Assembly: GCA_035578005.1 (NCBI GenBank)
Contig: DATJYK010000085.1
Span: 9,875 to 73,874, forward strand
From: Terriglobia bacterium
Lineage (GTDB): Bacteria > Acidobacteriota > Terriglobia > UBA7540
Reading direction: 5' to 3'
DNA length: 64,000 nt
The translations under genes and the position numbers were made by a program. The notes beneath the pieces are model-generated. The model made no database searches and was not told where the DNA came from. It saw only the letters and a program-made list of their open reading frames with translations. Positions 10,004 to 57,382 of the stretch are shown one piece after another (within the stretch, counting starts at the first letter, position 1; each line of letters opens with the position of its first letter).

Positions 10004-10888
10004 ATGAACATCGCGCGCATTGTCTGTCCGGTGGATTTTTCCGAGTATTCGGGAAGAGCCTACGATTACGCCTATTCTCTCGCCAAGCATTACGGCGCCA
10101 AGCTTCTTGTCGAGCACGTCGTGCAGCCGCTGCAGGCTGCATATCCTTACTACGCGTTTCCCGAAGCCACTCTGCAGGACACGTGGTCTCAGCTCAGCAC
10201 TGACGCCGAAAAGGGCCTTCAAGAGCTGGTCAAGGCGCACACACGGAATGGATTGCAGCCGGAGTGCGTCATCCGGCAGGGCTTCCCCTGGGAATCGATT
10301 CTTAGTTTTGCCGAAGAGCGCTCTGCTGACCTGATCGTGATGGGCACGCACGGCCGCCGCGGCCTTGACCGGCTTACGATGGGATCAGTTACTGAGCGCG
10401 TGCTGCGCAAGGCGCACTGCCCTGTGCTGGCGGTGCGCAAGCCCGCCCATGACTTTGTAGAACCCGACAGCACGTCCGATTGCGTTCACCTGCGCAAGAT
10501 CCTCCTCTGCACCGACTTCTCCGATCACGCCGCGCGGGCCTTGAGCTATGCGTTCTCGCTGGCCATGGAATACAACGCGGAGCTCACGCTGCTCCATGTA
10601 CTCGAAGATTCCGACAGCGAAAAGGTCCTGCAGGATGCGACGGCGAAGGCGGTGAAAGAGCTCGAGAAACTGGTTCCAGCGGATATCCCGAACTGGTGCA
10701 CGGTGAAGTCGCTGGTGCGCACCGGCAAGCCTTATCAGGAAATCGTTCAGCTCGCCCAGGAGGAGCAAGCCGACTTAATCATCGTCGGCGTCCGTGGCCG
10801 CAACGCTGTCGATTTGGCCCTCTTTGGATCAACCACCTATCGGGTGATTCAGTTGGGCTCCTGTCCGGTGCTGGCGGTTCACATCTGA
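10004..10888 (+). CDS. tandem universal stress protein (two UspA domains)
   Basis: Two repeats of the Usp ATP-binding C-terminal motif: LIVMGTHGRRGLDRLTMGSVTERVLRKAHCPVLAV and LIIVGVRGRNAVDLALFGSTTYRVIQLGSCPVLAV. Confidence 0.85.
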   Translation: MNIARIVCPVDFSEYSGRAYDYAYSLAKHYGAKLLVEHVVQPLQAAYPYYAFPEATLQDTWSQLSTDAEKGLQELVKAHTRNGLQPECVIRQGFPWESILSFAEERSADLIVMGTHGRRGLDRLTMGSVTERVLRKAHCPVLAVRKPAHDFVEPDSTSDCVHLRKILLCTDFSDHAARALSYAFSLAMEYNAELTLLHVLEDSDSEKVLQDATAKAVKELEKLVPADIPNWCTVKSLVRTGKPYQEIVQLAQEEQADLIIVGVRGRNAVDLALFGSTTYRVIQLGSCPVLAVHI

Positions 10889-19705: not shown

Positions 19706-20569
19706 GTGGCGATAAGCCCTCTCGAGCTCGTCCGACTCCCGGACTTGATGAGACGCGGCCCGGGCCGGCCGGAGGTCACCATTGCGCTCATCGATGGCCC
19801 TGTCGCTCGAGACCTTCCCGACTTCGCCGTCGCCACCATCCGTGAAATCCCCGGAAAGCTGAAAGGAACCTGCGCTCGCGCGGATACCGTCGCGTGCACG
19901 CACGGCACCTTCGTCGCCGGCATGCTCGCCGCCCGCCGCGGCTCCGCGGCTCCCGCCATCTGTCCCGGATGCACGCTGCTGCTTCGCCCCATTTTTCCAG
20001 AGGCGGTGAACGACGGAGACATGCCAAGTGCCACTCCCGAGGAGCTCGCCGAGGCTATTACGGATAGCGTCGAGGCCGGAGCCAAGGTGATCAATTTGAG
20101 CGCGGCACTGGTTCAAGCGTCACCGAAAGGCGAAAGCAACTTGGAGCAAGCGCTCAACTACGCAGCCCAGCGCGGCGTCATCACAGTTGCCGCGGCCGGC
20201 AATCAAGGAACGGTGGGCAGCTCGGCCATCACGAGGCACCCTTGGGTTATTCCGGTTGCGGCCTGCAATCTTCAGGGCCGGCCGCTGGGCGAATCGAATC
20301 TGGGAAGCTCGATCGGCAGGCAGGGGCTACTTGCTCCCGGCGAACAGGTCACCAGCCTGAGCTCCGACGGCAGGCCGCAAACCTTGGGCGGGACCAGTGC
20401 GGCTGCGCCTTTCGTGACAGGTGCGATCGGGCTTCTTTGGTCCGAGTTTCCGAAGGCGCGCGCCTCGGAAGTGAAGCTGGCGGTGACACGCCGCGGCCGC
20501 CAACTGCACAGATCATTAGTGCCGCCTTTGCTGGACGCCTGGGCGGCCTATCAGGCCTTGTCTGCCTGA
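19706..20569 (+). CDS. S8 family subtilisin-like serine peptidase, no signal peptide and no prodomain
   Basis: Catalytic motifs in order: Asp (VTIALIDGPV), His (CTHGTFVAGM), Asn (NLSAA) and Ser (GTSAAAPFVTGA). At 287 aa it is minimal, and its N-terminus is hydrophilic. Confidence 0.85.
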   Translation: MAISPLELVRLPDLMRRGPGRPEVTIALIDGPVARDLPDFAVATIREIPGKLKGTCARADTVACTHGTFVAGMLAARRGSAAPAICPGCTLLLRPIFPEAVNDGDMPSATPEELAEAITDSVEAGAKVINLSAALVQASPKGESNLEQALNYAAQRGVITVAAAGNQGTVGSSAITRHPWVIPVAACNLQGRPLGESNLGSSIGRQGLLAPGEQVTSLSSDGRPQTLGGTSAAAPFVTGAIGLLWSEFPKARASEVKLAVTRRGRQLHRSLVPPLLDAWAAYQALSA

Positions 20570-20661
20570 ACGCACTGCACCTCTGTCCGCGTGTAGGAAG
20601 GCAAGTGCCCAAAGGCTCTGGCTGATTGCCGATGGAGAGCTTAACCGTAACGAGGTTGAAA

Positions 20662-21051
20662 ACCATGATGAGAATTCCTGGATTTCACGCAGAAGCCGCT
20701 CTTTACCAGACAGGCCTAGGTTGTGGGGTTCGCAAGTCGCCTGCCCAACTGCCAATCCAGGGGGTGTTCCCTCAACTGCTACCCATCGACGACATCTGCG
20801 GGGGCGAGGAGTGGTGCGAAGACTTGCTTATCGACTGGGCGTTCGGCCCGGGATCAGCCCCATACGGCACACCCATCACGGGAGGGTCCTTCCCTGTCTC
20901 AGGTGACGATTCGGGTGGCGATTCGGGGATGCGTTGCCGGGAGGGATACACCGACTGCACGTGTGACCCAGGTCCGCCGCTGAAGTGTACCAAGGACTGG
21001 GTCAACGTGCGGTGCAAAAAAGCGTACAGCGTCCCGTGTACGCCAAAGTGA
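20662..21051 (+). CDS. Cys-rich protein, member 1 of a five-gene paralogous family with a shared N-terminal motif (MMRIPGFHAEAALYQT)
   Basis: The conserved N-terminal 15 aa match four downstream ORFs. The C-terminus is Cys/Gly/Asp-rich (CGGEEWCEDL...CREGYTDCTCDPGPPLKCTKDWVNVRCKKAYSVPC). Confidence 0.6.
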   Translation, partial: TMMRIPGFHAEAALYQTGLGCGVRKSPAQLPIQGVFPQLLPIDDICGGEEWCEDLLIDWAFGPGSAPYGTPITGGSFPVSGDDSGGDSGMRCREGYTDCTCDPGPPLKCTKDWVNVRCKKAYSVPCTPK

Positions 21052-21417
21052 GCATAGCCGGAGCAAACCGGCTAAGCAGCGTCTCAGGCAAGAATCATTC
21101 GATGGAGGGTGACAAATCGAGACATGAACCGACAGCCAAAGAAGGAACTCACCCAACAAGCCGATCCGCGGCATCGGGTGCGGCTCCCGGGATTTCTGAT
21201 TGAAGAAGAGGTCGGCTTGGGCGACGCCATCAAGCGCGTCACCTATGCCATGGGCATTAAACCTTGCAGCGGTTGCGACAAGCGCGCCGCCGCGCTGAAT
21301 CGATGGATGCACTTCTCGAGATAGACCGGCTGTAGCGGCGGTCGCAGCCTGCCCGGTAAGGGACCGCCGGTCGGCGCTTGCAGAGCGCCGCTACAAATTA
21401 TAAGGAGGCAAAATTCT

Positions 21418-22371
21418 ATGGAGCAACCAGACGTGAACGACGCTTTGACAGCCACATCCGCCAATGGAAGTGACGCCGCAGCCGTGCCAGACTTTCCTGC
21501 GGGAGCAGGTACGGTTGCGCCCCAAGCTTGTTCCACCTGCGGAACAATTCCGGCCGGAGGCGTGGGGAAGGCAGTGCCGGCCGGCAACGGTACCACGAGC
21601 AGCCCCAGCTATATTTACGCCCTCGGACGCATCGAACCGCGTTTCCCCAAGATTTCGGTGGAAAAGGAGTTCGCGCAGGCTCTGGGGCGAGATAACGTCG
21701 CGGGCCTCACGGACCGGCAAGCGCTTCGAGCTGCGCTCTCGAAGCCCGAAAACCGCTACTTGGTGCGGCAACTCTGCTGGGTGATGACCATCGAGGGCCT
21801 GGAGACTTACATTGTTGGCCCCCGCGACCCCGCGGATTTCAGCCTGTTGGTTGAAGCCCTGCGTCCCACCCCGCAGCCTTGGGACCTTGACTGCGTCATC
21901 GGAGTTCGGGGACCCATCGCGCAACCCGAGATGTGCAACGGGCTGATGGTTCCCATCGTCGTCTTTGACCAGATCTACTCCTTCGACCGCGATTCGCTGA
22001 TTAAAGCCATCCCCAGGCCCAAAGAGACCTCGGCGAAGGAGTTTGCGCCGGCCGCCGAGGAGCTCTTCGACCGCATCATGCAGATGACTGACAATGCCGG
22101 CGCCACTGACGGCAATCGCGCTCTGAATTACCTCGCCGTTCGTTACCCGCGCATTTATGAGGTGGTTGCGGAAGCCTTCGGGCGTAATGAATCCTTAAGC
22201 GCGGTGGAGGTTAATCCGTCGCCCTTGAGCGGCACACGAAAAGTGGTTGACGTGGTCTTCGCCTTCACCAACCGCAATACTGATGTGGTTAGCAAACAAG
22301 CGGTACGCGTCGATGTGACCGACGAGTTTCCGTTTTTGGTAAGCAAGTTGTCGCCGTACTACGACCGTTGA
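21418..22371 (+). CDS. hypothetical 317-aa protein; possible homolog of the conserved C-terminal DUF domain of cyanobactin PatA/PatG proteases (recollection, not verified)
   Basis: Good SD (AAGGAGG) upstream. The segment SPSYIYALGRIEPRFPKISVEKEFAQAL resembles the Y-V-Y-A-L-G...F...E motif I recall from PatA/PatG DUF domains. There is no signal peptide. Confidence 0.65.
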   Translation: MEQPDVNDALTATSANGSDAAAVPDFPAGAGTVAPQACSTCGTIPAGGVGKAVPAGNGTTSSPSYIYALGRIEPRFPKISVEKEFAQALGRDNVAGLTDRQALRAALSKPENRYLVRQLCWVMTIEGLETYIVGPRDPADFSLLVEALRPTPQPWDLDCVIGVRGPIAQPEMCNGLMVPIVVFDQIYSFDRDSLIKAIPRPKETSAKEFAPAAEELFDRIMQMTDNAGATDGNRALNYLAVRYPRIYEVVAEAFGRNESLSAVEVNPSPLSGTRKVVDVVFAFTNRNTDVVSKQAVRVDVTDEFPFLVSKLSPYYDR

Positions 22372-45104: not shown

Positions 45105-46223
45105 ATGGCGGTTAACCCAACCGGCGGCCCACAGCTCGAGAGTGCCACGCGCGGCGTGGCGCAAGCGGTGGTTGCACCGCTTACTCGCGCTGCGATCTTT
45201 CTGGTGGCGACGCTGAAGCCAGACCCCGGCAGTCGAACCGGCACTCGAACCGTCATTCGGTCTTTCTGCGCGGACCTCGCGGCTATCTTTCGCGCGGTCG
45301 AATTTCGCGACATTGAGGCCGGACTTTCCTGCGTCATGGGGATTGGTTCCGACGCCTGGGACCAGCTCTTTGGCGCGCCGCGCCCCGCGGAGCTGCACCC
45401 TTTTCGCGAGATTCGCGCCGGGGCGCGTCATGCCGTCTCAACCCCGGGAGACCTGCTGTTCCACATCCGCGCGAAGCGCATGGATCTGTGTTTTGAGATG
45501 GCCACGCAAATCATGGCGCGAATCGGTGAGGTGGTTTCGCCCGTCGACGAGGTGCACGGATTCCGGTACTTCGACGCGCGCGATCTCCTGGGGTTTGTGG
45601 ACGGCACGGAGAATCCCAGGGGCGATGAAGTTGCGGAAGCGGCGCTCATTGGCGACGAGGATGCCGCCTTCGCCGGCGGAAGCTACGTGATCGTGCAGAA
45701 GTACCTGCACGATATGGTCGGCTGGAATGCTCTGTCCACGGAGGCGCAGGAGCGAATTATCGGGCGAACCAAACTCTCCGATATCGAACTCGACGATTCG
45801 GTTAAGCCCACTTCAGCGCACAACGCCCTTACGGTGATCGAGGAAAACGGCAGACAGATCCAAATCCTGCGCGATAACATGCCTTTCGGGAGCGCCGGCT
45901 CGGGGGAATTTGGGACCTATTTTATTGGCTACAGCCGTTCACCTCGCACCATTGAGCAGATGCTTGAGAACATGTTTATCGGGCGGCCGCCCGGCAACTA
46001 TGACCGTCTGCTCGATTTCAGCCGCGCCGTTACCGGGAGTCTTTTCTTCGTGCCCACTGCCACATTCCTGGAGGACGTTGCGGAAGAGGCATCTGACGCG
46101 CCTCCGGCCGCTTCGCAGGCCGCGCAACCCGCGCCGAGCATCCCACAAGAGAGTAATGGTCGGCGCGAGCGTGACGGCTCATTGGGTATCGGTTCCCTGA
46201 AAGGAGACGTCGAACATGAATAA
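45105..46223 (+). CDS. Dyp-type peroxidase carrying a C-terminal encapsulin targeting peptide
   Basis: DyP motifs (GFVDGTENP; the distal Asp/Arg region). The C-terminal tail DGSLGIGSLKGDVEHE matches the family-1 encapsulin cargo-loading peptide consensus (SLxIGSLK). The stop overlaps the encapsulin start by 8 nt. Confidence 0.85.
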   Translation: MAVNPTGGPQLESATRGVAQAVVAPLTRAAIFLVATLKPDPGSRTGTRTVIRSFCADLAAIFRAVEFRDIEAGLSCVMGIGSDAWDQLFGAPRPAELHPFREIRAGARHAVSTPGDLLFHIRAKRMDLCFEMATQIMARIGEVVSPVDEVHGFRYFDARDLLGFVDGTENPRGDEVAEAALIGDEDAAFAGGSYVIVQKYLHDMVGWNALSTEAQERIIGRTKLSDIELDDSVKPTSAHNALTVIEENGRQIQILRDNMPFGSAGSGEFGTYFIGYSRSPRTIEQMLENMFIGRPPGNYDRLLDFSRAVTGSLFFVPTATFLEDVAEEASDAPPAASQAAQPAPSIPQESNGRRERDGSLGIGSLKGDVEHE

Positions 46224-47046
46224 TCTGCATCGCGAGCTTGCCCCGATTTCTGATGCCGCCTGGGCCCAGATCGAAGAGGAAGTAACGCGGACGTTCAAGC
46301 GCCATCTTGCGGGCCGGCGGGCGGTGGATGTACGAGGGCCGGCCGGTACGGGCCTCTCGGCCGTAGGCACCGGCCACCTGCGGGAAATTGCTACGCCGGG
46401 GGATGGCGTCCACGGTCGTCAGCGGGAAGTGAAACCGCTGGTTGAGCTCCGCGTTCCCTACGAACTGGAGCGGCAGATGATCGACGACGTGGAACGCGGC
46501 GCCAATGATTCTGACTGGGAGCCGGCGAAGATCGCGGCGCGCCGCCTGGCTTTTGCGGAGGACGGCGCCATATTTGTGGGCTATAGCGCGGCCGGGATCG
46601 TCGGCATCTGCGAGGGAACCAGCAACCCGAAGAAAACCCTGCCCGGCGATGTAAGTCAGTACCCGCAAGCTATTGCGGAGGCGCTGAGCCAGTTGCGGAC
46701 GGCCGGCGTAAACGGGCCTTACACGGTGCTGCTGGGCGCCGACGCGTATACCGCCTTGGCTGAAACCAGCGATTACGGCTATCCGGTTCTGGAACACGTC
46801 AAGCGCCTGGTGGGCGAAAGATCGGAGGATAAGATCATCTGGGCGCCCGGCATCCCGGGCGCGGTGGTTCTGACCACCCGTGGCGGCGACTTCGAACTGC
46901 ACATTGGCCAGGACACTTCCATCGGCTACTTGAGCCACACCGATAGCACGGTCCGCCTCTACTTGCAGGAGACTTTTACCTTCCTGCTGCTCACCACCGA
47001 GGCCGCCGTCGCCTTGGCGCCGCCGGCGGCAAAAAAGAAGCGTTGA
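46216..47046 (+). CDS. family 1 encapsulin nanocompartment shell protein (Linocin M18-like, HK97 fold)
   Basis: Full-length similarity to encapsulins: MNNLHRELAPISDAAWAQIEEE, GYPVLEHV, ILLGADAYTAL-like segments, and a C-terminal GYLSHTDSTVRLYLQETFTFLLL. Confidence 0.9.
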   Translation: MNNLHRELAPISDAAWAQIEEEVTRTFKRHLAGRRAVDVRGPAGTGLSAVGTGHLREIATPGDGVHGRQREVKPLVELRVPYELERQMIDDVERGANDSDWEPAKIAARRLAFAEDGAIFVGYSAAGIVGICEGTSNPKKTLPGDVSQYPQAIAEALSQLRTAGVNGPYTVLLGADAYTALAETSDYGYPVLEHVKRLVGERSEDKIIWAPGIPGAVVLTTRGGDFELHIGQDTSIGYLSHTDSTVRLYLQETFTFLLLTTEAAVALAPPAAKKKR

Positions 47047-47340
47047 TGCACGGCGTTACGGCACCGGCTGCGCCGGGTGTCAGGCGCACAAGAAGGGGAG
47101 CCGCCTTGAAATCCTCGTCCGGTCAACTTAATCGGCCAGCAGAATCGCTCGCGTTCGCCACGATGCAAGGTAACCGGAAACACGGTTGTCTCGGTCTCTT
47201 GCACCGTCCGCACCTCAAGCCACTCAGGAGTTGACATCACGCGGTAGCGCACAACTCCGGGCGTTCTCCGATCCGTCAATTCCTCGTGCACTGCGACGAG
47301 CACAGCCGGATCGGCGCAATCCGAACTAAAAAAAAACTGC

Positions 47341-47397
47341 TTGACATGGAACCAAATGGTTCCCTATAGTGAATAGGGAACTGAATGGTTCCCTATT
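47341..47397 (+). promoter_or_regulatory. arsR promoter (TTGACA-18-TATAGT) overlapping an operator of repeated AATGGTTCCCTAT / ATAGGGAAC motifs
   Basis: TTGACAtggaaccAAATGGTTCCCTATAGTGAATAGGGAACTGAATGGTTCCCTATttt lies directly upstream of the ArsR start. ArsR/SmtB regulators bind inverted repeats overlapping their own promoters. Confidence 0.6.
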
Positions 47398-47727
47398 TTG
47401 GCGATGGAAAATGACGCGGTTTTCAAGGCTTTAGCCGATGCGAGCCGCCGGCAGCTCCTCGACCGGCTGCAGCGGAAAAATGGACAAACCCTGGGAGATC
47501 TTTGCCGGGGGCTGGACATGACCCGGCAAGCTGTGGCAAAACACCTGGCAATCCTCAAGAAGGCTAATTTGGTGTCTTGGAAGCGCCAGGGGAGGACACG
47601 CCTTCATTTCATCAATCCCGTCCCGATTCATGACATCGCTGAACGCTGGATCAGGAAGTTCGAATACCCGCGCCTGAGGGCGCTCTCAAAACTAAAGAAA
47701 ACTTTGGAGGGAATTAATGATGAGTAA
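47398..47727 (+). CDS. ArsR/SmtB family transcriptional regulator
   Basis: ALADASRRQLLDRLQRKNGQTLGDLCRGLDMTRQAVAKHLAILKKANLV is the winged-HTH of ArsR. The start is TTG or the ATG 6 nt downstream. Confidence 0.8.
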   Translation: MAMENDAVFKALADASRRQLLDRLQRKNGQTLGDLCRGLDMTRQAVAKHLAILKKANLVSWKRQGRTRLHFINPVPIHDIAERWIRKFEYPRLRALSKLKKTLEGINDE

Positions 47728-48175
47728 AACGGACGAAAGCGCCTTTGTTTACGTCACCTTCATCCGCACCACAGCAGAACGGTTATGGTCTGCGCTGACC
47801 AGCGCCGATTTCATGAAGGAATACTGGTTTGGCATGCACCTCAAGAGCGAATGGAAGGTTGGAGCGCAGTGGCAAATGATCTTCGCCGATGGACGGGTTG
47901 CCGACGGCGGAGAAGTCGTCGAATTCGAGCCGCCTAAACGCCTTGTGCTCAGTTGGCGCAATGAGTTCCGGCCGGAACTGAAGGCTGAGGGCTATGCGCG
48001 CTGCGTGATCGAACTCGAGCCCGTCTCCGAGGCTGTCAAGCTCACGATCACGCACACCATGGACCGCCCGGAGTCAAAGTTCATTAAAGCCGTGTCGAAT
48101 GGCTGGCCGCAAATTCTCTCCAACCTGAAATCCCTGCTCGAAACCGGCCAGATTGTGTTGAAAGGAATCCATTAG
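47717..48175 (+). CDS. SRPBCC-family protein (AHSA1/Aha1-like)
   Basis: Typical ArsR-associated SRPBCC partner. It overlaps the ArsR stop. Length and composition fit. Confidence 0.7.
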   Translation: MMSKTDESAFVYVTFIRTTAERLWSALTSADFMKEYWFGMHLKSEWKVGAQWQMIFADGRVADGGEVVEFEPPKRLVLSWRNEFRPELKAEGYARCVIELEPVSEAVKLTITHTMDRPESKFIKAVSNGWPQILSNLKSLLETGQIVLKGIH

Positions 48176-48248
48176 TGTCCAGCAGCCTCGCGGAAAATGG
48201 GATTTCGGACGTCGGAAAGATGAGGCGTCAGAGTTTGGGCGGGAACTC

Positions 48249-48280
48249 GTGGATTCCCGCCTTCGCGGGAATGACTGCGT
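48249..48280. repeat. family B palindromic repeat (ATTCCC-N8-GGGAAT core), compact copy
   Basis: GTGGATTCCCGCCTTCGCGGGAATGACTGCGT is the reverse complement of 63103-63129 plus the shared GAATGACTGCGT flank. Confidence 0.8.
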
Positions 48281-48324
48281 GGAGGCAGGATCTTTAAGTC
48301 CAACCATGTCAACCCCGCGGAAGC

Positions 48325-48374
48325 GGGGTCCATCGGGGTCCATCGGGGTCCATCGGGGTCCGTCGGGACCCGTG
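48325..48374. repeat. tandem 10-bp repeat (GGGGTCCATC x3 plus two degenerate units), preceded by a CCCCGCGGAAGCGGGG hairpin
   Basis: GGGGTCCATCGGGGTCCATCGGGGTCCATCGGGGTCCGTCGGGACCCGTG read directly; it abuts the family B repeat. Confidence 0.85.
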
Positions 48375-49409
48375 GTTTTTATTGACAATCCGGTAATCAT
48401 GCGCTATATACATATCGACGTCGCGTCTTTGGGGTTGGCGGCATGTCCATTCGTCTCAAACGTACGGTGACAGTGGCGCGCTTGGAGGCCAATCGGCGCA
48501 GCGCCCTCAAAATCGACGGGGCCGCGCACAGAGGCCGGCAAGCGCCGGTCGAGTTTGAACGCGCTGCGCGGGGGCGGGCGATCAAGGGCTAAGGAATTGT
48601 TCTGGTGGGTTCTGATGAATGCACGGGTGGGCAAGGTGCTGCAGACGGCTCCCGAGTTGATCACCCGGGAGCAACGTTCACTGCCCAGCATCGATGAACG
48701 GCTGCAATGTTTCTTGTCCGAACAGGACATTAAGGACGCGATTTGCTGGCGTAGGGCCGTCAGGGCTCGACGAAAAAAGAGTTTTGCGATCGAAGCCTAA
48801 GACTCCTTTATTATCAACACGAATTTCGAACGAACCCAGCATCTATTTGATTCTAAGTATTTTATTTCATTAACCCAGCATCTTATTGATGCTCAGTGAT
48901 TTAACTGATTTCTCGACACTTTAGAACCTGCCGCTCCCGGGCGCTGGGCATAGCAGTCACGGGATCGAGATAGATTGGTGACACGCAGTTTTGCGGAATG
49001 TTTACTTGGCCCGCGCACTTGAATACTGTAGTTGATGTCTGTCTGAGCTAAAATCGCCCCCTGCGACGGGTGGCGCGGTGCCTGCTGGTCCAGAGGCACC
49101 CCCAAGCCGGACCCCCACCATGATGTGTGACGGCCGTCACAGCGTCTTACGTGCCATGTTGGGAGAGTAGCGCTTTATGGCAAACGCTGAATCGGTGGCT
49201 GCCGGATGGGTGGTTGCGGGAAACGGTGGGATGGTTGTGAACCGGTTGCCGGGATGTATATTGTTTAGTAACCTGTAAATTCTTACACTTGCTTCCTGAA
49301 CGTCGGGGCTGTCAAATCGAGGGTCTGAATAGAATGAAGGTTTTCGGGGGGACGAAACGTCGCTCGTCCACCCGTGGCAGGCGAAGGCTGAGAGGAGAGC
49401 AATCGTCTT

Positions 49410-50525
49410 ATGCGAGCCAGACCAAGCCTTACCTTTCAAGTAATTCTCCCCGCTCTAATCTTGATGCTTGCACCCTGCCGCCTCTTGCTTGGGCAGAAGT
49501 TACCCGAGTCCACTCAGGGACCGTCGGTGGCGGCAACCTTCATAACGGGAGACCCTAAGGACTACGCCGGCATTGAAGAATGCCGTTCTTGTCACAAGCC
49601 TGAATACAGAGAGTTTGAGAAGACAGTTCACGCCGCGGTTAAGGTTCCCGGTAAAGACTACATCTCGGGCTGCGAAGTGTGCCACGGGCCGGGAAAGGCC
49701 CACTCGGACGCGATTGAGGCAGCCGAAGGCGACGAAGGCAAGACGCAGAATGCCCTGGTGGAGCATCCGATCTTCTCGTTCGCCGTCAACGCCAAAATCA
49801 AGGTTGCGTTGGCGCAGTTTCCCATCTTCCGCTTCCGCTCCAACTCTAAAGAGAACGCGGCCCACTGCCTGCTCTGCCACATCAGCAGCAAGCAGCAGGA
49901 TTTCTTCGAGCACTCAACACACGTGGCGCACGGGATGTCGTGCGACCAATGCCACGCCACTCATTTGGTGGAAGCGGTGAAGGACCTGAGCAAAGGCGAC
50001 CTCCAGTCCCCACAGGGTTATTTCTTCCAGGTTCCGCAGCTTCCTGACGAGACGCGATGGTTGCACAGCAGCCTGCTGAAGCAGTCGGAGCCGGGGCTTT
50101 GTTTTGGCTGCCACGGCACCGTACAGGCGGAGTTTGCCCTGCCGGTTCATCATCGTGTGCCGGAGGGGCTGATGAAATGTACCGACTGCCATAATCCGCA
50201 CGGTACGCTGAACCGGGTCAGTCTTACCCGGCCGTTCTACGAAACCTGTGTGAACTGCCACGTGGAGAAGCGTGGACCTTATGTTTACGAGCATCCCTCG
50301 CTCAAGGTGGAAGGCTGCGTGGTGTGCCACAATCCGCACGGCAGCACCAACCGCCAGCTTCTGGTGCGGCGCGAAGGGCGCCAGCTTTGCCTGCAGTGCC
50401 ACACGGGATTCCATGATCAGGCGGGCGTGCCGCACAGCCGTTTTAGCTTTCAGACCAGCGGCGAGTGCGTCCGCTGCCACGTGGCGGTTCACGGCTCGAA
50501 CCTTGACCCTACCCTCCTGAGATGA
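49410..50525 (+). CDS. periplasmic decaheme c-type cytochrome (MtrA/MtoA/PioA-like)
   Basis: Signal peptide and exactly ten CxxCH motifs (CRSCH, CEVCH, CLLCH, CDQCH, CFGCH, CTDCH, CVNCH, CVVCH, CLQCH, CVRCH) in 371 aa. Confidence 0.85.
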   Translation: MRARPSLTFQVILPALILMLAPCRLLLGQKLPESTQGPSVAATFITGDPKDYAGIEECRSCHKPEYREFEKTVHAAVKVPGKDYISGCEVCHGPGKAHSDAIEAAEGDEGKTQNALVEHPIFSFAVNAKIKVALAQFPIFRFRSNSKENAAHCLLCHISSKQQDFFEHSTHVAHGMSCDQCHATHLVEAVKDLSKGDLQSPQGYFFQVPQLPDETRWLHSSLLKQSEPGLCFGCHGTVQAEFALPVHHRVPEGLMKCTDCHNPHGTLNRVSLTRPFYETCVNCHVEKRGPYVYEHPSLKVEGCVVCHNPHGSTNRQLLVRREGRQLCLQCHTGFHDQAGVPHSRFSFQTSGECVRCHVAVHGSNLDPTLLR

Positions 50526-50546
50526 GGGCCCAGGAACGGAGGCGTT

Positions 50547-52565
50547 ATGAGAACGAAATGCCGCTTTCTGATGTTCGCCGCCGGCCTTCTGGCGCTGCCC
50601 GCGATCTTGGGTGCGCAAGACAGCCAGGAGGCGCCGGTTGGCTTCGGAGGCTTCACCACCCAGGGGTCAGTGAGCGTCGGGGGCCGATTTACCGACGTTA
50701 AAGGTTATGAGCCCATGTACCTGGAGCTTTTTGACTTGCAGCCGGGCGTGCGCCTGATGGATTTCAACGCCTTCGGCGAAGCTAAAGAGGGCACCAACCC
50801 CTTTGCCGACAGCTATTCCATGAGCATGAGCAATCTGGGCGGCGACCCCTTCCCGACGGTGCAATTCAGCGTCATCAAGAACAACCTTTATGACCTGCGG
50901 GTGAACTGGAGACAGGCTTACTACTATTGGAACCAGAATGACGACGTAATCCTGCCGATCGCGCCTGTGGCCAAGCTCTCAACGGGCCTCACCAACAACC
51001 ATGACTGGGCCACAGTGCGCAAGTTCGGCTCCGTCGACTTCACCTTGCACGCCACCAATCATCTGCGGTTCCATTTCAATTACTACCGCACGTCCGACAG
51101 CGGGTCCACGTTTACCACCGCGTCGCCCGACTTCCTGGACTCGCCGGGTTACTGGGGCGGCTACGCGCGGGCGAATCCGTACCCCCTCTACGCTCCCATC
51201 AACGATGAGACCAACCGCTTCACCGGTGGAATGGACTATACCTTTCACTCCTGGACCTTTCACTACTCGCTGGGCTACCAGACGTTCAATGCGATCACGA
51301 ACGCCACGAATCAGACTTCACCCTTGGTCAGCATTAACCCGGCCGCGAGCTCGGCCACTGAACCTCTGACCAGCTTCACCTGGTCCCAGTACAGGCGCCT
51401 GACCACGCCCATCAGCGAATTGTCAGTCGTCGGAAAGCCTACTTCCAAGCTTGAGTTGCGGGGCAACTACCTGTATTACAGGTACACGGGGCCCCTAAGC
51501 TTCGATCAGTCCTTCAATGGGATCGCTCCTGACGCCGACGGTGTTCTGACCCCCTACGCGGTGAGCCAGAGCGTGCGAGGCACGGTGAAGGAACCCGACC
51601 ATATCGGTGGCATGGGATTCACTTACAACTTCAAAGATTGGTGGAGTTTCAACGCAGACTATCGCTATTCGCGGATGTCGAGCGAGGGTATCGGCAACTT
51701 CAGCAGTCTTTTCAACGGCACCACGCCGGCCACCAACATGGACGACATCGTCTGGAAGAACGGCGTCAGCGATTTTGACTTCACCATGGACCTCACCCCG
51801 ATCGGCACCCTGGTGATCCGGCCCGGCATTCATCTGATGAAGGCCGACGTGCTGACATCAGAGTTTGGCGTGACTGACCCCGCTCTCACGCTGCGCACCA
51901 AAACGGCCTGGCCCGAAATCAGCGTGGGTTACGAGCCCTCCAAGAAGTTCAGCATTCGAGGGGACCTGCACAGCTTCTGTAACGGTGCTTCCTATACCGC
52001 GATCACCCCCCATACCCAGGTAGGCGGGCGGGTGGTGGCCCAGTGGCACATCACTCCCAAATTGTCCTTTGACAACGAACTCAACCTCACGAACAGCAAA
52101 CTGATTGACACCAACTATCGGAGCAACTTTCACGCTAACGCCTCCACCCTGTCGTACGCCCTCAACGACCGTTTCTCGCTCTTTGGCGCATTCAGCTACG
52201 AGAGCTTCTACGCCCAGGGAGACATTGTCTACATTCGTGGCACCCCACCTCTAAACGACTTCCTGCAGGACCAAGAGATCAACCGGGTGTGGCAGGGCGG
52301 CCTCGATGTGAAGCCCACGCGGCACTTCGGATTGCGCTTCAGCGGCAACTATGTGCGCTCCACCGGTCTGGGCTATGTCAGCGGTGAACCGCCGGCCTAT
52401 CGGCCCCTCTACTGGCCGCTGGCAACCGGGACCGTCTTCTATGACATTCCCAAGGCCGGCCGGATTTCGTTGGATCTACAGCGCACTTATTACATCGAGC
52501 AAATCGTGACCGCCAACAACTTCCAGGCAGATCTGCTGACCATCCGCTGGACCCGCGATTTTTAA
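50547..52565 (+). CDS. outer-membrane beta-barrel protein (MtrB/MtoB/PioB-like porin partner)
   Basis: Signal peptide. 672 aa with alternating beta-strand-like segments rich in Y/N/G/T and a C-terminal aromatic residue (..WTRDF). It lies immediately downstream of the decaheme gene. Confidence 0.6.
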   Translation: MRTKCRFLMFAAGLLALPAILGAQDSQEAPVGFGGFTTQGSVSVGGRFTDVKGYEPMYLELFDLQPGVRLMDFNAFGEAKEGTNPFADSYSMSMSNLGGDPFPTVQFSVIKNNLYDLRVNWRQAYYYWNQNDDVILPIAPVAKLSTGLTNNHDWATVRKFGSVDFTLHATNHLRFHFNYYRTSDSGSTFTTASPDFLDSPGYWGGYARANPYPLYAPINDETNRFTGGMDYTFHSWTFHYSLGYQTFNAITNATNQTSPLVSINPAASSATEPLTSFTWSQYRRLTTPISELSVVGKPTSKLELRGNYLYYRYTGPLSFDQSFNGIAPDADGVLTPYAVSQSVRGTVKEPDHIGGMGFTYNFKDWWSFNADYRYSRMSSEGIGNFSSLFNGTTPATNMDDIVWKNGVSDFDFTMDLTPIGTLVIRPGIHLMKADVLTSEFGVTDPALTLRTKTAWPEISVGYEPSKKFSIRGDLHSFCNGASYTAITPHTQVGGRVVAQWHITPKLSFDNELNLTNSKLIDTNYRSNFHANASTLSYALNDRFSLFGAFSYESFYAQGDIVYIRGTPPLNDFLQDQEINRVWQGGLDVKPTRHFGLRFSGNYVRSTGLGYVSGEPPAYRPLYWPLATGTVFYDIPKAGRISLDLQRTYYIEQIVTANNFQADLLTIRWTRDF

Positions 52566-52628
52566 CTTGCGCGCTATGCTGGATCGGCTACCATAGCTAA
52601 GATTCACTGCACTCTAGGAGGAATGCGA

Positions 52629-52982
52629 ATGAACCTTTTCCCCCAACGGCTGATCCGACGTGTTCTGGGAATCGCGCTGCCTGTCGCGGCGCTGGCGTGC
52701 CTCGCCCTTCCCGGGAAGCTTAACGCCCAGGAGGCCGCCGATCTTTACAACAAGAAGTGCGCCGTTTGCCACGCCAAAGATGGATCAGGAAATACCGCCA
52801 AAGGCAAGAAGGCGAAGGTCAAGCCCGTCCACGAAAATATCGCCCACTCGGAGGCCGATATGATCAAGATCGTGAACGATGGCAAGGGCGACGACATGGA
52901 CGGTTACAAGAAGGTTTACTCTGCCGATCAGATCAAAGCGCTCGTCGATTACTATCGTAGCCTCGCTGCCAGCTCCAAGTAA
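52629..52982 (+). CDS. small periplasmic monoheme cytochrome c (MtoD-like position)
   Basis: Signal peptide and a single heme motif CAVCH. About 117 aa. Confidence 0.7.
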   Translation: MNLFPQRLIRRVLGIALPVAALACLALPGKLNAQEAADLYNKKCAVCHAKDGSGNTAKGKKAKVKPVHENIAHSEADMIKIVNDGKGDDMDGYKKVYSADQIKALVDYYRSLAASSK

Positions 52983-53009
52983 GTCCGGGGTTCACGATAC
53001 GCTCAGGTT

Positions 53010-53657
53010 TTGATGGCCACATCGACCCTCTTCGAAGTTCTCTTCATCGGCATGGCCTTGGCGCTTGCGGCCCTGGTAGCCTTCCGCGCCGAGCTCACCC
53101 GGGCGCGCGGCGGAAAGATTCTGGCCTTTTTCACCCTCTTCATTCTGCCGGTTCTGGCCGTCGGGTTGGGTTATTCGGAGCACATGCAGCGGGCCGAGAG
53201 CACCCAGTTCTGCCTTTCCTGTCACGTGATGCACGACTTCGGCCGCAGCCTCTATGTGGACGATCCCAGCTACATCCCCGCCCGGCATTTTCAGAACCGC
53301 CTGGTGCCGCGAGACCACGCCTGCTACACCTGCCACACCGACTACACCATGTTTGGCACGGTGGACGCTAAGCTTCGCGGCTTACGGCATATGTATGTGG
53401 AATATCTCGGAAAAGTGCCGGCGCCCGCTGACATCAAACTTTACACGCCGTTCAATAACCGCGAGTGTCTCTACTGCCACGCTGGAGCGAGGGCCTTTGA
53501 AGAGGAGCCGAGGCACACCAAGACTCCGGACATGATGAGTAAGATTATGTCAAACCAGATGTCCTGCATGGCCGCTAAGTGCCACGATACCGTGCACGAT
53601 GTTGACACGCTGAAAGACGCCACCTTCTGGAAGGGAGGGGAGCAGGATGCCGAATGA
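53010..53657 (+). CDS. membrane-anchored NapC/NirT (CymA-like) multiheme quinol dehydrogenase
   Basis: N-terminal TM segments, heme motifs CLSCH, CYTCH and CLYCH, plus an atypical fourth site CMAAKCH. Confidence 0.75.
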   Translation: MMATSTLFEVLFIGMALALAALVAFRAELTRARGGKILAFFTLFILPVLAVGLGYSEHMQRAESTQFCLSCHVMHDFGRSLYVDDPSYIPARHFQNRLVPRDHACYTCHTDYTMFGTVDAKLRGLRHMYVEYLGKVPAPADIKLYTPFNNRECLYCHAGARAFEEEPRHTKTPDMMSKIMSNQMSCMAAKCHDTVHDVDTLKDATFWKGGEQDAE

Positions 53658-53886
53658 CGCTTCCTCAGCGGGCGCTCCCGTGGTCGAGAAGCGATTGCGG
53701 CTCGCCGGTCTGCTCATTTGTCTCGGTCTGCTGGCGCTGTTGCTTTCGCTGATTAAGGTCCACCCTTTGTCTTTCGTGGCCTTCGCGATGATTACCTGTC
53801 CGCTTGTGCTCGCCGGCATCGTCCTGTTCCTTTACTCGATTGTCTCGCATGAGCCGCACGGCGGCAACATTCCACCCAAGTCGTAG
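53647..53886 (+). CDS. small two-TM membrane protein, translationally coupled to the NapC-like gene
   Basis: ATGCCGAATGA start/stop overlap. Two hydrophobic helices (LAGLLICLGLLALLLSL; LVLAGIVLFLYSIV). Confidence 0.4.
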   Translation: MPNDASSAGAPVVEKRLRLAGLLICLGLLALLLSLIKVHPLSFVAFAMITCPLVLAGIVLFLYSIVSHEPHGGNIPPKS

Positions 53887-53917
53887 CGCTGGCGGGCCAG
53901 AGAGCGCAATCACTCGA

Positions 53918-54868
53918 TCAAGCTGACCGGATCTTAAACCCCATCTTTTCGAGCGCCATTGCATTGGTCCGAGCAGCCTCGGCCGGCCCGCCGGGCGGCG
54001 GTTCGTATGCGTCCAACTCCACGATCACCCAGCCGGAGAATCGAGTCTCGCGCATCGCCGCGAGAATGGCGGCAAAATCCACCGCGCCGGTGCCGATCTC
54101 GCAAAAGTGGTATTTGGCGGTGCGTACTTGGTCACGGTTTTGTGCCGCCAGCTTCGCGATATCTTTGCGCACGTCCTTGAAATGAAGGAACAGCAGGCGG
54201 TCGCGATACGTGCGGATCACTTCAGCCGGGTCCGCACCGCCCAGGCTGAGATGGGCGACGTCCGCGATCAGTTTGACGTAACTCGGGTCCGTGGCCTCCA
54301 GCACTTTTCCCAGTCCCTGCCGCGTCTCGCCGAGAGTCCCGAAATGGGGGTGATAGCCCACTTGCAGGCCGGAGTCGCCCGCGATTTTGCCAAGCTCGTT
54401 CATGCGGGCGCCGAGGGCCTTGATCTGGTCCGGCGAATAAGTCTGGTGAGGATGGCCGCCGTCAGTGACCTGCAAATAATGCCCGTTGAGCCCGTGGAAG
54501 AATTGCGCGTACGCCGCGAACTTGTTGCTCACCGGGCCAAGAATCGCGGGGTCCAACGTGACTCCCCAGCAGGAGAGCGCCACGGGAGTGATGTGGAGTG
54601 ACTGCAGCTTTTCGTGCAACTCGGCTTGCTTTGAGCCCGCGTATTCATCCGCAACCCAGCCCAGCAACTGCGCGCCCTGATAATGCAGGGAGGAGATGGT
54701 GTCAAGCGCTTGTTCGAACTGATTGCGCGGCCAGGAGATGGTGGCGTAACCCACGGGATTGGGCAGCGACGCAGCAGCGGCAGACGCAGGGAGCGACGCT
54801 GCCATCCAAGCCAGCCCCGCCTGACCACTGCGAACAAGAAACTCACGCCGGGGAAGAGAGCTTTTCAT
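53918..54868 (-). CDS. Tat-exported sugar-phosphate isomerase/epimerase (xylose-isomerase-like TIM barrel)
   Basis: Twin-arginine motif RREFLVRSGQAGLAWMAAS and TIM-barrel family sequence (GYHPHFGTLGE, LHFKD). Confidence 0.7.
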   Translation of the reverse strand: MKSSLPRREFLVRSGQAGLAWMAASLPASAAAASLPNPVGYATISWPRNQFEQALDTISSLHYQGAQLLGWVADEYAGSKQAELHEKLQSLHITPVALSCWGVTLDPAILGPVSNKFAAYAQFFHGLNGHYLQVTDGGHPHQTYSPDQIKALGARMNELGKIAGDSGLQVGYHPHFGTLGETRQGLGKVLEATDPSYVKLIADVAHLSLGGADPAEVIRTYRDRLLFLHFKDVRKDIAKLAAQNRDQVRTAKYHFCEIGTGAVDFAAILAAMRETRFSGWVIVELDAYEPPPGGPAEAARTNAMALEKMGFKIRSA

Positions 54869-54934
54869 AGATAATTCCTCACTGTGATCGGCTAATCGGG
54901 CCATCGAGCCATCGGGTGATTGAAGGATCACAAA

Positions 54935-57382
54935 TCACTCAATCACCCGATGACCCGATGGTCGGATCACCCGATGACTCAGGGCCCAGGCCGCAAGGTA
55001 AGCGGTTGCGCCGCAAGCCAGGGTGATCTTCAAACCGAAGTTGATGGCGATCACAATCGCCAACACCGAACCCAGAACGCTGGAGCCAGCATTCAGCGCC
55101 CAGGCCCACTCTACCAAACCGCCCTTCGCGTCGGTAGCGCTTGCGGTGTCCTGCGTCAATCCGGAGATGTCGTCATCCTCCGGCGCCGCGGCCACGGCTC
55201 GCAGTCCAGTGGGAAACGGCATTCCCATCACGAATCCCAGAGGCGCCAGGAGTGCACCGCTCACCAGTAGCTTAAGTCCGAAGGACAAGCCCACGCCAGA
55301 GGTGAGGAGAGACGGCAAAACGAGAGTGTAAGCCAGCAAGGCTCCGACGATGACCGCCAGCGGCAAGTGAAGGCTTTGAGGCCGAAGCGCCAAACGACGC
55401 GAAACCAGGCTGCCCACGCCGCTCGACAGCAGCATCAGGAAGATGACTACCGTGATGGCGTAAGTCGGATGCCCCAGGTATAGCACCAGGCGCTGCACGA
55501 AGGTGATCTCCACGAGAATGTAACCTAGCCCGAGAGCGACAAAGTACACCAGGCCCAAAGTGGCCTTCGGTCTGTCCGGTCCGCCCAGGGCTAGAGGCAG
55601 AATGAGCAAAGCCAGCACCGCCAGGATCGAAATCAGAAGCACGATTCCCAGCACCACCACGCCGAGGCTTACCTTCCAATCAATTCCCCGATGCGTCTCG
55701 CCCGCGGCCGCTAGCACTTGCGGCATCTTGAGCGTGAAGAAAAAGAAAGGTGCGTCATCGCCCACCGGTGAGATGTTGTAAGGGTAACTTCGGACAAAAG
55801 CGCCGGGATCACCGGACGTGATCAACTGCGAGAACGGGTTGTTTCCCGGTGCAGACGGCAGGTACAAAGCACGGAGGTTTGGATTGGCTTGAAGGTACGC
55901 CTGGACGCGCAATTCTTCGGCCGCTGTAAAGGGGCTCTTTTTGGCGAGAACCGCCACCGGCCGCCCGTCTTCATTCAGGGAGCCGTCTGAGATCACCATG
56001 AAGTTGCGCGCCGGGTTCGTCGCGCCCAGCCGCCGCAGCGCTTCAAGCGCGACGGATGCCACTCGCAAGGCCTCGCGCGGCTGTTTGAATTCCCAGCGAG
56101 TCACAGCCACCAATCCGTCCGGCTTGAGATGCTGAAAATATTGCTCGAAGGCCTCGGTTGTATAGAGGTAACTCTCACTCAGCGCGAAGGCCCCCGCTGC
56201 CGTAGACGCCCAGGTGTCCACCAGCGTCATCTGAATGACGTCGAATTGAGCTTTGCTGCCACGAATGAAGGAGCGGCCGTCGCTCACCACCATGCGTACC
56301 TGCGGCAAGGCATAGAGGTTGTAGCTATAGTCCGCGTATTGTCCGCGCATGATGGTGTTCGCAATGAGAGGATTGATCTCGATGCCGGTAACGCTGGGGC
56401 TCCCGTTGGCGACGGCGCGCAGCACATCCACGCCGCCTCCCGGTCCGATAATGGCGTAGTCGCCGTGCGGACGCAGCACATTGGCAGCCCCGGGCGGCAC
56501 CGACATCAGATCCCTCTGCCACACCCCGTTCCACGCCAGCGGATTCACGTTGACGATCGCGCTGTTGGCGTCCGCATCGATCACGATCCACTTGGACTGG
56601 TCGGGCTTGCGATCAACTTCGATACGCGAAATAGCGTTCCAGCCGACGAATTCAACCTGGGCCACGCTGCCCACGCGAACGCCTTTCGCATACACAACGT
56701 CCACGAGGCTCCAGAAGCGATTGGCGGTGATCAGCGCGAGAAGAGCCGCTGCCAAGGTGAGGGCAACTTTGCGGCCTCTGCTCCCTAACGCCCAGGCGGC
56801 GCCGGCGAGCGCCATGGCCACTGCGGCGAAGATCACCGCGCCCGGTCCGCCCACCAAGTCAAGCAGCGGAACCACAGCCAGACAAGCAAGCGCCCCGCCC
56901 GCCAGGTCAGCGCCGTAGAGCATGGGAACTTGCTGCGAGTTGCGGGCAAAGACCGTCGCCAGCAGCAAGCCTGTAAAGAAGAAGGGTAGCGCCGAGGAAA
57001 GATAAATGACTGTTAGCTTGAGGAAGTTGGCGCTGCTCAGCCCGAGAGACACAGGGATGTGAAGAACAATCTCAAGCACAAGGAACGTGGCAACAGCATT
57101 GATGGTGCAGCAGGCGGCGGCGAGGGACCGCATAGGGTAGCGAGCCAGCCAACGGCGCCGTAAGTATGCGAACACGCCGCCCGCTCCCAGCCCCAAGAGC
57201 GCGACGGAGATCGCCAGAAACGCAAAGTGGTAGAAGAGGATTACAGAAAACAGGCGCGTGAGACTGAGCTCGAGCAGGAGGGCGGCGAAGCTTGCCAGCG
57301 CCACTCCTATGAGGGGCCGCGAAGAAATCGGCGACCGGTCGGCTGCCCTTGCCTGCTCGAGTTGCTGTGCGACTTGAGCCAT
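54935..57382 (-). CDS. large polytopic membrane protein with an embedded spermidine-synthase-like (aminopropyltransferase) domain
   Basis: Multiple TM helices flank a Rossmann-type region (YAIIGPGGGVDVLRAVANGSPSVTGIEINPLI) typical of fused spermidine-synthase membrane proteins. Confidence 0.7.
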   Translation of the reverse strand: MAQVAQQLEQARAADRSPISSRPLIGVALASFAALLLELSLTRLFSVILFYHFAFLAISVALLGLGAGGVFAYLRRRWLARYPMRSLAAACCTINAVATFLVLEIVLHIPVSLGLSSANFLKLTVIYLSSALPFFFTGLLLATVFARNSQQVPMLYGADLAGGALACLAVVPLLDLVGGPGAVIFAAVAMALAGAAWALGSRGRKVALTLAAALLALITANRFWSLVDVVYAKGVRVGSVAQVEFVGWNAISRIEVDRKPDQSKWIVIDADANSAIVNVNPLAWNGVWQRDLMSVPPGAANVLRPHGDYAIIGPGGGVDVLRAVANGSPSVTGIEINPLIANTIMRGQYADYSYNLYALPQVRMVVSDGRSFIRGSKAQFDVIQMTLVDTWASTAAGAFALSESYLYTTEAFEQYFQHLKPDGLVAVTRWEFKQPREALRVASVALEALRRLGATNPARNFMVISDGSLNEDGRPVAVLAKKSPFTAAEELRVQAYLQANPNLRALYLPSAPGNNPFSQLITSGDPGAFVRSYPYNISPVGDDAPFFFFTLKMPQVLAAAGETHRGIDWKVSLGVVVLGIVLLISILAVLALLILPLALGGPDRPKATLGLVYFVALGLGYILVEITFVQRLVLYLGHPTYAITVVIFLMLLSSGVGSLVSRRLALRPQSLHLPLAVIVGALLAYTLVLPSLLTSGVGLSFGLKLLVSGALLAPLGFVMGMPFPTGLRAVAAAPEDDDISGLTQDTASATDAKGGLVEWAWALNAGSSVLGSVLAIVIAINFGLKITLACGATAYLAAWALSHRVIRPSGHRVIE

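Follow-up and report, generated by a model that had tools for sequence, protein, structure and literature searches.

Do the clustered cytochrome genes of an uncultured soil bacterium encode a path for electrons across the outer membrane, and if they do, in which direction would the electrons travel? This question is raised by positions 49410-53886 of a 64,000-nt stretch of contig DATJYK010000085.1 (assembly GCA_035578005.1), referred to here as the window and numbered from its first nucleotide. The contig, which is also found in ENA, belongs to a metagenome-assembled genome that the public record labels Terriglobia bacterium, and the acidobacterial host suspected from gene content is thereby borne out. 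An initial annotation, made from the sequence alone, recognized here a porin-cytochrome cluster of the MtrAB/MtoAB/PioAB type with a monohaem cytochrome and a NapC/NirT-type membrane cytochrome. The analysis reported here supports this view: the locus is a real porin-cytochrome operon and represents a distinctive acidobacterial variant of the known Mtr/Mto/Pio system, which entails no new principle. The features of this variant are a divergent barrel, a two-helix NapC-like protein with a CX4CH motif, an extra small membrane subunit and an operator of the cAMP receptor protein (CRP) type. New are the CRP-type palindrome upstream of the genes and the strong enrichment of such sites upstream of these cassettes. 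The elements of the locus are as follows.

49126-49141, no strand: perfect CRP-type palindrome TGTGACGGCCGTCACA, 284 nt 5' of the decahaem start codon; candidate operator for a CRP/FNR-family regulator
49410-50525, plus strand: gene 1, decahaem c-type cytochrome of the MtrA/MtoA/PioA/DmsE type, 371 aa with signal peptide
50547-52565, plus strand: gene 2, outer-membrane 26-strand beta-barrel, divergent MtrB/PioB-like sheath for the decahaem protein, 672 aa
52623-52982, plus strand: gene 3, periplasmic class I monohaem cytochrome c, 119 aa (start in the public gene call: 52629)
53013-53657, plus strand: gene 4, inner-membrane NapC/NirT/NrfH-type cytochrome with four expected haem sites, 214 aa from the ATG at 53013
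53647-53886, plus strand: gene 5, small membrane protein with two hydrophobic helices, 79 aa; presumed partner subunit of gene 4

The first four of these co-directional open reading frames (ORFs) had been described initially and are also called as genes in the public assembly, but the fifth (53647-53886, 79 aa) had been missed. The mechanical ORF of gene 4 begins three nucleotides further upstream, at a TTG codon (53010), and yields 215 aa. Intergenic gaps of only 21, 57 and 27 nt separate genes 1 to 4, genes 4 and 5 overlap by 11 nt, and no terminator-like site was found within any gap of the cassette. Moreover, the gene order is kept in about 45 loci with unrelated flanks, as seen in a survey that included one genome per species (loci numbered L001 and so forth). 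Because of the short gaps, the overlap, the lack of terminator-like sites and the conserved order, we infer that the five genes are transcribed as one operon; the objection that they might not be co-transcribed does not refute the cluster. The gene following the cassette is convergent. Throughout the 64 kb no other ORF contains more than one CxxCH motif, and the window thus harbours no MtrC-like gene, in agreement with the initial reading.

The decahaem cytochrome is the most readily classified component. Its 371 residues contain exactly ten CxxCH motifs behind a hydrophobic N-terminal segment (residues 5-23), and accordingly the reported count of ten haems plus signal peptide stands; the same number, no more and no fewer, is found in all 60 orthologues extracted. 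A comparison with the MtrA family had been recommended as a check. The protein scores 191.7 bits (E=1.6e-56) on the NCBIfam model TIGR03508 (DmsE family), half a bit short of the cut-off of 192.2 bits, all 33 aligned relatives match this model at E<=1e-10, and the best solved relative is 6r2q_A, the MtrA chain of the Mtr complex 6R2Q (E=1.4e-27). Photobacterium MtrA, used as a reference (322 bits on TIGR03508), shares 30% identity with residues 54-364, and along this collinear stretch the ten haem motifs are all in register. An alignment that includes the Photobacterium protein reveals ten or eleven further conserved histidines, which are possible distal ligands. Judged by these similarities, the protein can be assigned to the MtrA/DmsE type. 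It also scores 171.9 bits on the model of the Geobacter GSU2203 decahaem family (cut-off 325) and partially matches the NrfH and NrfB models. An internal duplication of 18 residues (HPIFSFAVNAK... / FPIFRFRSNSK..., residues ~125-142) lies between haem sites 2 and 3 and is common to the closest orthologue clade only.

The barrel is considerably more divergent. The protein is identical to the GenBank entry 'MAG TPA: hypothetical protein VMT20_05195 [Terriglobia bacterium]'; it has a signal-like N-terminal segment, lacks cysteine motifs and ends in ...RWTRDF, so that the aromatic C-terminus noted for the 672-aa protein is indeed a phenylalanine. Two results weigh against an MtrB-like identity: the window protein matches neither PF11854 (MtrB_PioB) nor TIGR03509 at E<=1, and an hhalign comparison of its family with bona fide Photobacterium MtrB is not significant (probability 1.9%). 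Sequence searches against solved structures, performed with the single sequence and with two family profiles, revealed nothing real, and the only Pfam match is a weak, sub-threshold hit to the generic OMP_b-brl family (E=0.0011).

The barrel belongs to a large family, which comprises 658 proteins in a word-indexed search and 477 cluster representatives in an exhaustive one. PF11854 is matched at E<=1 by 17 of 25 close orthologues; its cut-off of 23 bits is passed by orthologues of 66% identity (34.5 and 28.6 bits) as well as by relatives at 28% and 35% identity (31.3 and 23.7 bits, respectively). TIGR03509, which has a cut-off of 240 bits, is matched by the best orthologue with no better than E=5.6e-7. 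The proposed PF11854 check is hence positive for the orthologues but negative at E<=1 for the window protein, and membership in the MtrB/PioB family holds for the orthologous group rather than for the window sequence alone. The gene of the relative with 28% identity is clustered with genes for two decahaem cytochromes, one of the OmcA/MtrC family (TIGR03507, 451 bits) and one of the DmsE/MtrA family (TIGR03508, 227.7 bits).

Structure prediction with AlphaFold2 (AF2) yielded a barrel of 26 long strands with an empty N-terminus (pLDDT 84.4, pTM 0.74); an alignment restricted to close orthologues gave a pLDDT of 60, which increased to 84.4 upon addition of distant representatives. The strand number lies within the range of 26-28 foreseen by the initial annotation and equals that described for PioB, MtoB and MtrB (PMC10654088). 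The closest solved fold is MtrB, and TonB-dependent transporters score well below. A TonB-dependent receptor was rejected on account of these lower fold scores, the missing Plug/TonB_dep_Rec match, the 26 rather than 22 strands and the empty N-terminus, and an OmpA-like protein was likewise rejected; the suspicion of an unrelated outer-membrane protein therefore does not refute the identity of the barrel. Its gene starts 21 nt after the decahaem gene in the window, and this pairing is preserved in every locus with DNA upstream of the barrel. Since the profile comparison with MtrB is not significant, the link to MtrB rests on the fold, the PF11854-passing orthologues and the genomic context, on the basis of which we consider the barrel a divergent member of the MtrB/PioB barrel class. 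As a side aspect, 9 of 25 barrel orthologues show faint matches to the model of Geobacter GSU2204, the neighbour of GSU2203; along with the decahaem matches, this hints at a distant link to the GSU2203/GSU2204 gene pair.

Gene 3 matches PF13442 (Cytochrome_CBB3, 44.1 bits) and, as previously stated, encodes a monohaem protein with one CxxCH (CAVCH) in 119 aa. CAVCH and Met92 are invariant among 42 sequences, and because Met92 occupies the position expected of a distal ligand, His/Met ligation is predicted. The best solved relatives are the C-terminal domain of CcoP and the cytochromes c6 and c552; the structure entry of MtoD is not among the solved structures matched at E<=1. Given the invariant methionine and the missing structure match, the proposed equivalence with MtoD, a bis-His cytochrome, is not supported.

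Gene 4, named 'NapC/NirT family cytochrome c' by PGAP, scores 42.8 bits on PF03264 (NapC/NirT; cut-off 24.1), but only 24-31 bits on the equivalog models of NapC, NrfH and TorC, far below their cut-offs of 134-478. The motif CLSCHVM, an NrfH-type CxxCHxM at haem 1, is invariant in 40 of 40 sequences; its role has been described for NrfH and Sideroxydans CymA (PMC10654088). Besides three CxxCH motifs the protein contains one CX4CH (CMAAKCH), which is found in 38 of 39 orthologues with variable inner residues, and four haem sites are still expected despite this spacing. Two N-terminal hydrophobic helices (residues 7-25 and 37-55) are conserved among orthologues, the second of which is equivalent to the customary NapC anchor, judging from the start of the Pfam match at residue 42. 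Accordingly, the designation as a membrane-anchored tetrahaem NapC/NirT protein is right with regard to family and anchor, yet the fourth site is not a canonical CxxCH and there are two helices instead of one.

Gene 5, also called in the public assembly, has homologues of 59-83 aa at the same position in orthologous cassettes and conserved positions across an alignment of 37 sequences, while no known family in Pfam or NCBIfam was matched. An apparent fusion of genes 4 and 5 in locus L007 was discarded, as a stop codon separates the two.

The decahaem-barrel pair occurs in at least 73 loci, all of which stem from metagenome-assembled genomes and none from isolates. Nearly all carriers are labelled Terriglobia, Terriglobales, Acidobacteriaceae, Ca. 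Sulfotelmatobacter, Ca. Acidoferrum, Acidiferrales or Bryobacterales; two loci carry other phylum labels, which we take as binning errors. According to the record titles, the genomes stem largely from peat, fen, palsa and wet soils, and Danish soil projects are likewise among the sources. In about 45 loci (type A) the set of five genes is complete and arranged identically; the others either comprise decahaem and barrel genes only (type B) or are truncated after the barrel. In at least six loci that are not type A, other multihaem cytochrome genes are located close by. Within the type B locus L019 (2916-8301) the decahaem and barrel genes (~62% identity) are followed by two further multihaem cytochromes of 280 and 369 aa, the larger of which scores 29.9 bits on the MtrC/MtrF domain II/IV model (cut-off 30); L018, L020-21, L026-28, L030-32 and others belong to the same type. 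The type B loci of peat Terriglobia lack the monohaem, NapC-like and small-protein genes as well as the CRP-type site. No MtrC-like or other multihaem ORF was detected within ~4 kb flanks of 45 type A loci, and the flanking genes differ from locus to locus; an AP_endonuc_2 gene beside the cassette (L019), which seemed to recur, proved not to be a conserved association. The cassette is thus present in at least 73 species-representative loci, nearly all Terriglobia, and MtrA/MtrB-like genes of Acidobacteria have been reported before (PMC7980381, PMC3669403, PMC10654088), in view of which the trait is less notable for an acidobacterium than first assumed.

The gap upstream of the operon (48176-49409) spans 1,234 nt. 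It had been characterized as some 1.2 kb of AT-rich noncoding DNA with repeats. Small repeats do exist, namely a tandem array of CGGGGTCCAT (4.4 copies, 48324-48367) and an imperfect 39-nt tandem pair (48833-48910), which lies inside the only AT-rich stretch of the gap. The AT-richness, however, is confined to a single 200-nt bin (48800-48999, 43% GC), whereas the other bins range from 54 to 63% and the window has ~60%. A public gene call places a 95-aa ORF without known domain on the minus strand at 48404-48691.

The palindrome at 49126-49141 is the sole perfect copy of TGTGA-N6-TCACA in 64 kb. Of 38 type A loci, 22 have a site with no more than one mismatch in the 450 nt that precede the decahaem gene (shuffled-sequence control: mean 0.43, maximum 4), compared with none of 17 two-gene type B loci. 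The upstream DNA (27 kb) contains 10 perfect sites and the remaining 601 kb of locus DNA only 2, which amounts to a ~110-fold enrichment. This enrichment supports the notion that the cassette is one regulated unit, and expression is probably controlled by a CRP/FNR-family regulator at the TGTGA-N6-TCACA site. In Shewanella, CRP directly activates omcA and mtrC (PMC4417206). Six loci carry a gene for a CRP/FNR-family regulator (cNMP_binding plus HTH_Crp_2) no more than 4 kb away from the cassette, and in three of these loci it immediately precedes the decahaem gene:

L004, 11169-11888, minus strand: CRP/FNR-family regulator gene
L013, ~1835-2524: CRP/FNR-family regulator gene
L006, ~1933-2619: CRP/FNR-family regulator gene
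L049, ~1872-2561: CRP/FNR-family regulator gene
L015, ~8053-8751: CRP/FNR-family regulator gene
L046, 2-682: CRP/FNR-family regulator gene

Four of the six proteins feature an N-terminal Cx2Cx8C and a further cysteine, reminiscent of the FNR iron-sulfur site. The operator hints at a redox, oxygen or nucleotide signal. Scans for FNR (TTGAT-N4-ATCAA), Fur and sigma-54 consensus sites upstream of 60 cassettes were empty or gave sporadic hits, a sigma-70-like site at 49235-49262 is at chance level (3 found, 2.1 expected), and an Rfam search over 47000-55000 returned nothing credible. The only other near-match to the palindrome in the window, the one-mismatch site GGTGACATTTGTCACA at 9880-9895, lies between divergent universal-stress-protein genes (9265-10888), which may share a regulon with the cytochrome operon.

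How does the cassette compare to characterized systems? In Sideroxydans lithotrophicus ES-1, slit_2494-2498 correspond to pmcA, imoA (formerly cymA-ES1), mtoB, mtoA and mtoD (PMC4412085, PMC13390432), and it is PmcA (His/Met, -143 mV) rather than bis-His MtoD (+155 mV) that connects MtoA to ImoA (PMC13390432). Common to both clusters are an MtrA-type decahaem gene followed by a barrel gene, a class I monohaem and a NapC/NirT-type tetrahaem cytochrome, and the absence of MtrC. The alleged match in composition and order with mtoA-mtoB-mtoD-cymA does not withstand this comparison, however: Sideroxydans has two monohaem genes, with mtoD on the other side of mtoA, whereas the order here is decahaem, barrel, monohaem, NapC-like and small membrane protein, with one monohaem gene and no equivalent of bis-His MtoD. 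By its predicted ligand type and its place beside the NapC-like gene, gene 3 appears to resemble PmcA more than MtoD. Further differences comprise the fifth gene, a haem-free two-helix membrane protein in place of PmcA, the two N-terminal helices and CX4CH fourth site of the NapC-like protein, and a barrel too divergent for a curated MtrB/PioB model match at E<=1. Finally, the host is a Terriglobia heterotroph, while Sideroxydans is a lithoautotroph of the Gallionellaceae.

With MtrCAB (Shewanella, 6R2Q; Photobacterium, locus L079) the cassette shares a decahaem protein collinear with MtrA with ten aligned motifs, a barrel of the 26-strand MtrB fold and an upstream CRP-type site; activation of the mtr genes by CRP has been demonstrated experimentally in Shewanella (PMC4417206). 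In contrast to MtrCAB, there is no MtrC/OmcA surface cytochrome, profile comparison detects no similarity between the barrel and gammaproteobacterial MtrB, a class I cytochrome with a single haem acts as the periplasmic carrier and the quinol dehydrogenase is encoded inside the operon. The periplasmic carriers of Shewanella are the tetrahaem proteins STC and FccA. PioABC of Rhodopseudomonas palustris TIE-1 likewise combines a decahaem cytochrome with an MtrB/PioB-family barrel and a small periplasmic carrier and also lacks a surface cytochrome. Yet, the carrier of the Terriglobia operon is a c-type cytochrome and not a high-potential iron-sulfur protein, NapC-like and small membrane protein genes are present in addition, and its decahaem protein is devoid of the long N-terminal extension of PioA.

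Homologues of PioA and PioB have been reported in Acidobacteria (PMC10654088), and earlier surveys noted no CymA homologues there (PMC6295460). The acidobacterial genes from soil metagenomes (Ca. Acidoferrum, PMC7980381; Arctic peat, PMC3669403) belong to the same phylum, class and protein families, and Ca. Acidoferrum and Acidiferrales metagenome-assembled genomes are among the carriers of the cassette. These studies counted hits to MtrA, MtrB and MtrC domains and inferred Fe(III) reduction (PMC7980381, PMC3669403). No description of the five-gene architecture, the two subtypes or the operator was found in the literature that was searched.

Based on the identity of the proteins, the fold of the barrel and their conserved linkage, the cassette very probably encodes an envelope-spanning electron conduit of the MtrAB/MtoAB kind. 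In such a conduit the decahaem protein would reside inside the 26-strand barrel and form a chain of ten haems across the outer membrane, the monohaem cytochrome c would shuttle electrons across the periplasm, and the NrfH/CymA-like cytochrome, held by its two-helix anchor and probably paired with the small two-helix protein, would exchange electrons with the quinone pool. The link to quinones is suggested by the PF03264 match and the invariant NrfH-type CxxCHxM motif of haem 1. As there is no surface cytochrome of the MtrC type, an extracellular partner would have to reach the mouth of the barrel, and only soluble or colloidal partners would then qualify, for instance complexed Fe(III)/Fe(II) or humic quinones.

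The direction of flow cannot be read from the sequence. The initial preference for an oxidative role of the Mto/Pio type was based solely on the absence of MtrC, and the operators, the FNR-like neighbours, the waterlogged habitats and the MtrC-linked barrel relatives weakly point the opposite way, i.e. toward an outward role. Together with the heterotrophic lineage and the published association with Fe(III) reduction, they lead us to lean toward outward flow, whereby heterotrophic Terriglobia of peat and soil would oxidize quinol and reduce extracellular acceptors when oxygen is scarce. For the conduit and the outward direction taken jointly, the chances appear evenly balanced. A bolder version can be put forward only tentatively: the cassette may be a lineage-specific, MtrC-less extracellular electron-transfer module under CRP/FNR control, with which abundant uncultured Terriglobia of peat and wet soils use humic quinones and Fe(III) in dissolved or colloidal form for respiration, or operate the chain reversibly, and the inner-membrane end of which (a two-helix NrfH-like cytochrome with a CX4CH haem and a two-helix partner) would be previously undescribed.

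Several observations speak against outward flow and the regulation assumed for it. The characterized MtrC-less system with a monohaem and a NapC-like gene, Mto, serves electron uptake; MtoA can partly replace MtrA, and FeGenie treats MtoAB as ambiguous in direction (PMC7005843); without a surface cytochrome direct contact to minerals is impossible. Moreover, a CRP-type site does not reveal the signal, the site is present in only 22 of the 38 loci, two of the six neighbouring regulators lack the cysteine motif, and the 64-kb window contains no CRP/FNR regulator gene.

Inward flow as in Mto/Pio, in which extracellular Fe(II), reduced humics or minerals are oxidized by the decahaem protein in the barrel, is the most serious competitor, although we deem it doubtful. 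Electrons would pass from the monohaem cytochrome to a terminal oxidase and/or a NapC-like quinone reductase and provide supplementary energy at oxic-anoxic interfaces. The parts list of decahaem, barrel, monohaem and NapC-like proteins matches Sideroxydans mto (PMC4412085, PMC13390432), but the order is unlike mto and the monohaem protein is not MtoD-like. There is no MtrC-type gene in the window or the flanks of 45 five-gene loci, and MtrC is said to be absent from iron oxidizers; yet, Magnetospirillum reduces iron via MtrAB without MtrC (PMC7005843). The product of gene 3, a predicted His/Met cytochrome of class I, is related to the CcoP, c6 and c552 domains, which commonly serve oxidases. 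The argument that His/Met ligation signals a high potential, and with it an oxidative role, was nevertheless dropped, since a cytochrome ligated in this way need not have a high potential: PmcA is His/Met-ligated at -143 mV (PMC13390432). A permafrost metagenome study assigns 'iron oxidation' genes to Acidobacteria (PMC11247091). Operators of the low-oxygen or anaerobic type and FNR-like neighbours fit an anoxic function somewhat better, and the window harbours no genes for autotrophy or an oxidase. The known Terriglobia are organoheterotrophs, which also disfavours inward flow.

A DmsEF-like arrangement, where the decahaem protein and barrel would supply a terminal reductase at the surface or outside the cell whose gene lies elsewhere in the genome (e.g., a molybdoenzyme), or would act on some other extracellular substrate like Mn oxides or iodate instead of Fe or humics, seems improbable. 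Among the curated families the decahaem protein scores best on DmsE, and the type B cassettes of peat, which swap genes 3-5 for other multihaem cytochromes, indicate a modular decahaem-barrel core; however, the window has no reductase gene beside the cassette, the other loci have mutually unrelated flanks, and the five genes travel as a self-contained unit. Still more improbable is an ordinary porin or transporter next to a chain confined to the periplasm that acts on nitrite, hydroxylamine or some other soluble compound. For this reading, the weak generic OMP_b-brl match (E=0.0011) as the only Pfam match of the barrel, its lack of a solved relative by sequence and the partial NrfH and NrfB matches of the decahaem protein could be invoked, but it conflicts with the 26 strands as in MtrB, the invariable position of the barrel gene directly after the decahaem gene, the orthologues passing the MtrB_PioB threshold and the absence of a catalytic NrfA-type gene.

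A trans-outer-membrane conduit, the reading favoured here, would be of ecological relevance. Terriglobia are among the most abundant bacteria of acidic, waterlogged soils and peat, habitats where the redox cycling of iron and humic matter is in competition with methanogenesis and governs the release of phosphorus and carbon. The conduit operon, conserved as a self-contained unit across at least 73 species-level uncultured genomes, provides a concrete genetic handle on this redox activity. The decahaem gene, the divergent barrel, the NapC-like gene with CLSCHVM and CX4CH, and the TGTGA-N6-TCACA operator constitute a marker set for metatranscriptomes. Since the barrel is labelled 'hypothetical protein' and has no MtrB/PioB model match at E<=1, surveys that require MtrB miss these clusters; if the MtrC-less Terriglobia module is real, the share of these organisms in iron and humic redox cycling has been systematically under-counted. 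The operator and the neighbouring FNR-like regulators offer a testable regulatory hypothesis, which could settle the direction of electron flow.

Other parts of the window contain features of separate interest. Between two minus-strand genes downstream of the cassette, a hairpin (54890-54975, minus strand) with a stem of ~40 bp (-62 kcal/mol, z = -7.6 vs shuffles) is composed of CATCGGGT(G/C)AT units and yields spurious weak miRNA matches in Rfam; a CATCGGG-type repeat, seen in this hairpin and in the upstream 10-mer array, was considered as a window-wide family and rejected, as it is not spread across the window. Upstream of the cassette, a DyP-type peroxidase gene (45105-46223, plus strand) overlaps an encapsulin (Linocin_M18) gene (46216-47046, plus strand) by 8 nt, the classic pairing of a cargo enzyme and a nanocompartment shell. 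A subtilisin S8 gene and a gene for a PatG_D/PatG_C-domain protein (19706-22371, plus strand, and neighbours) lie among small unannotated ORFs, and this region may be a cyanobactin-like peptide-maturation locus in an acidobacterium.

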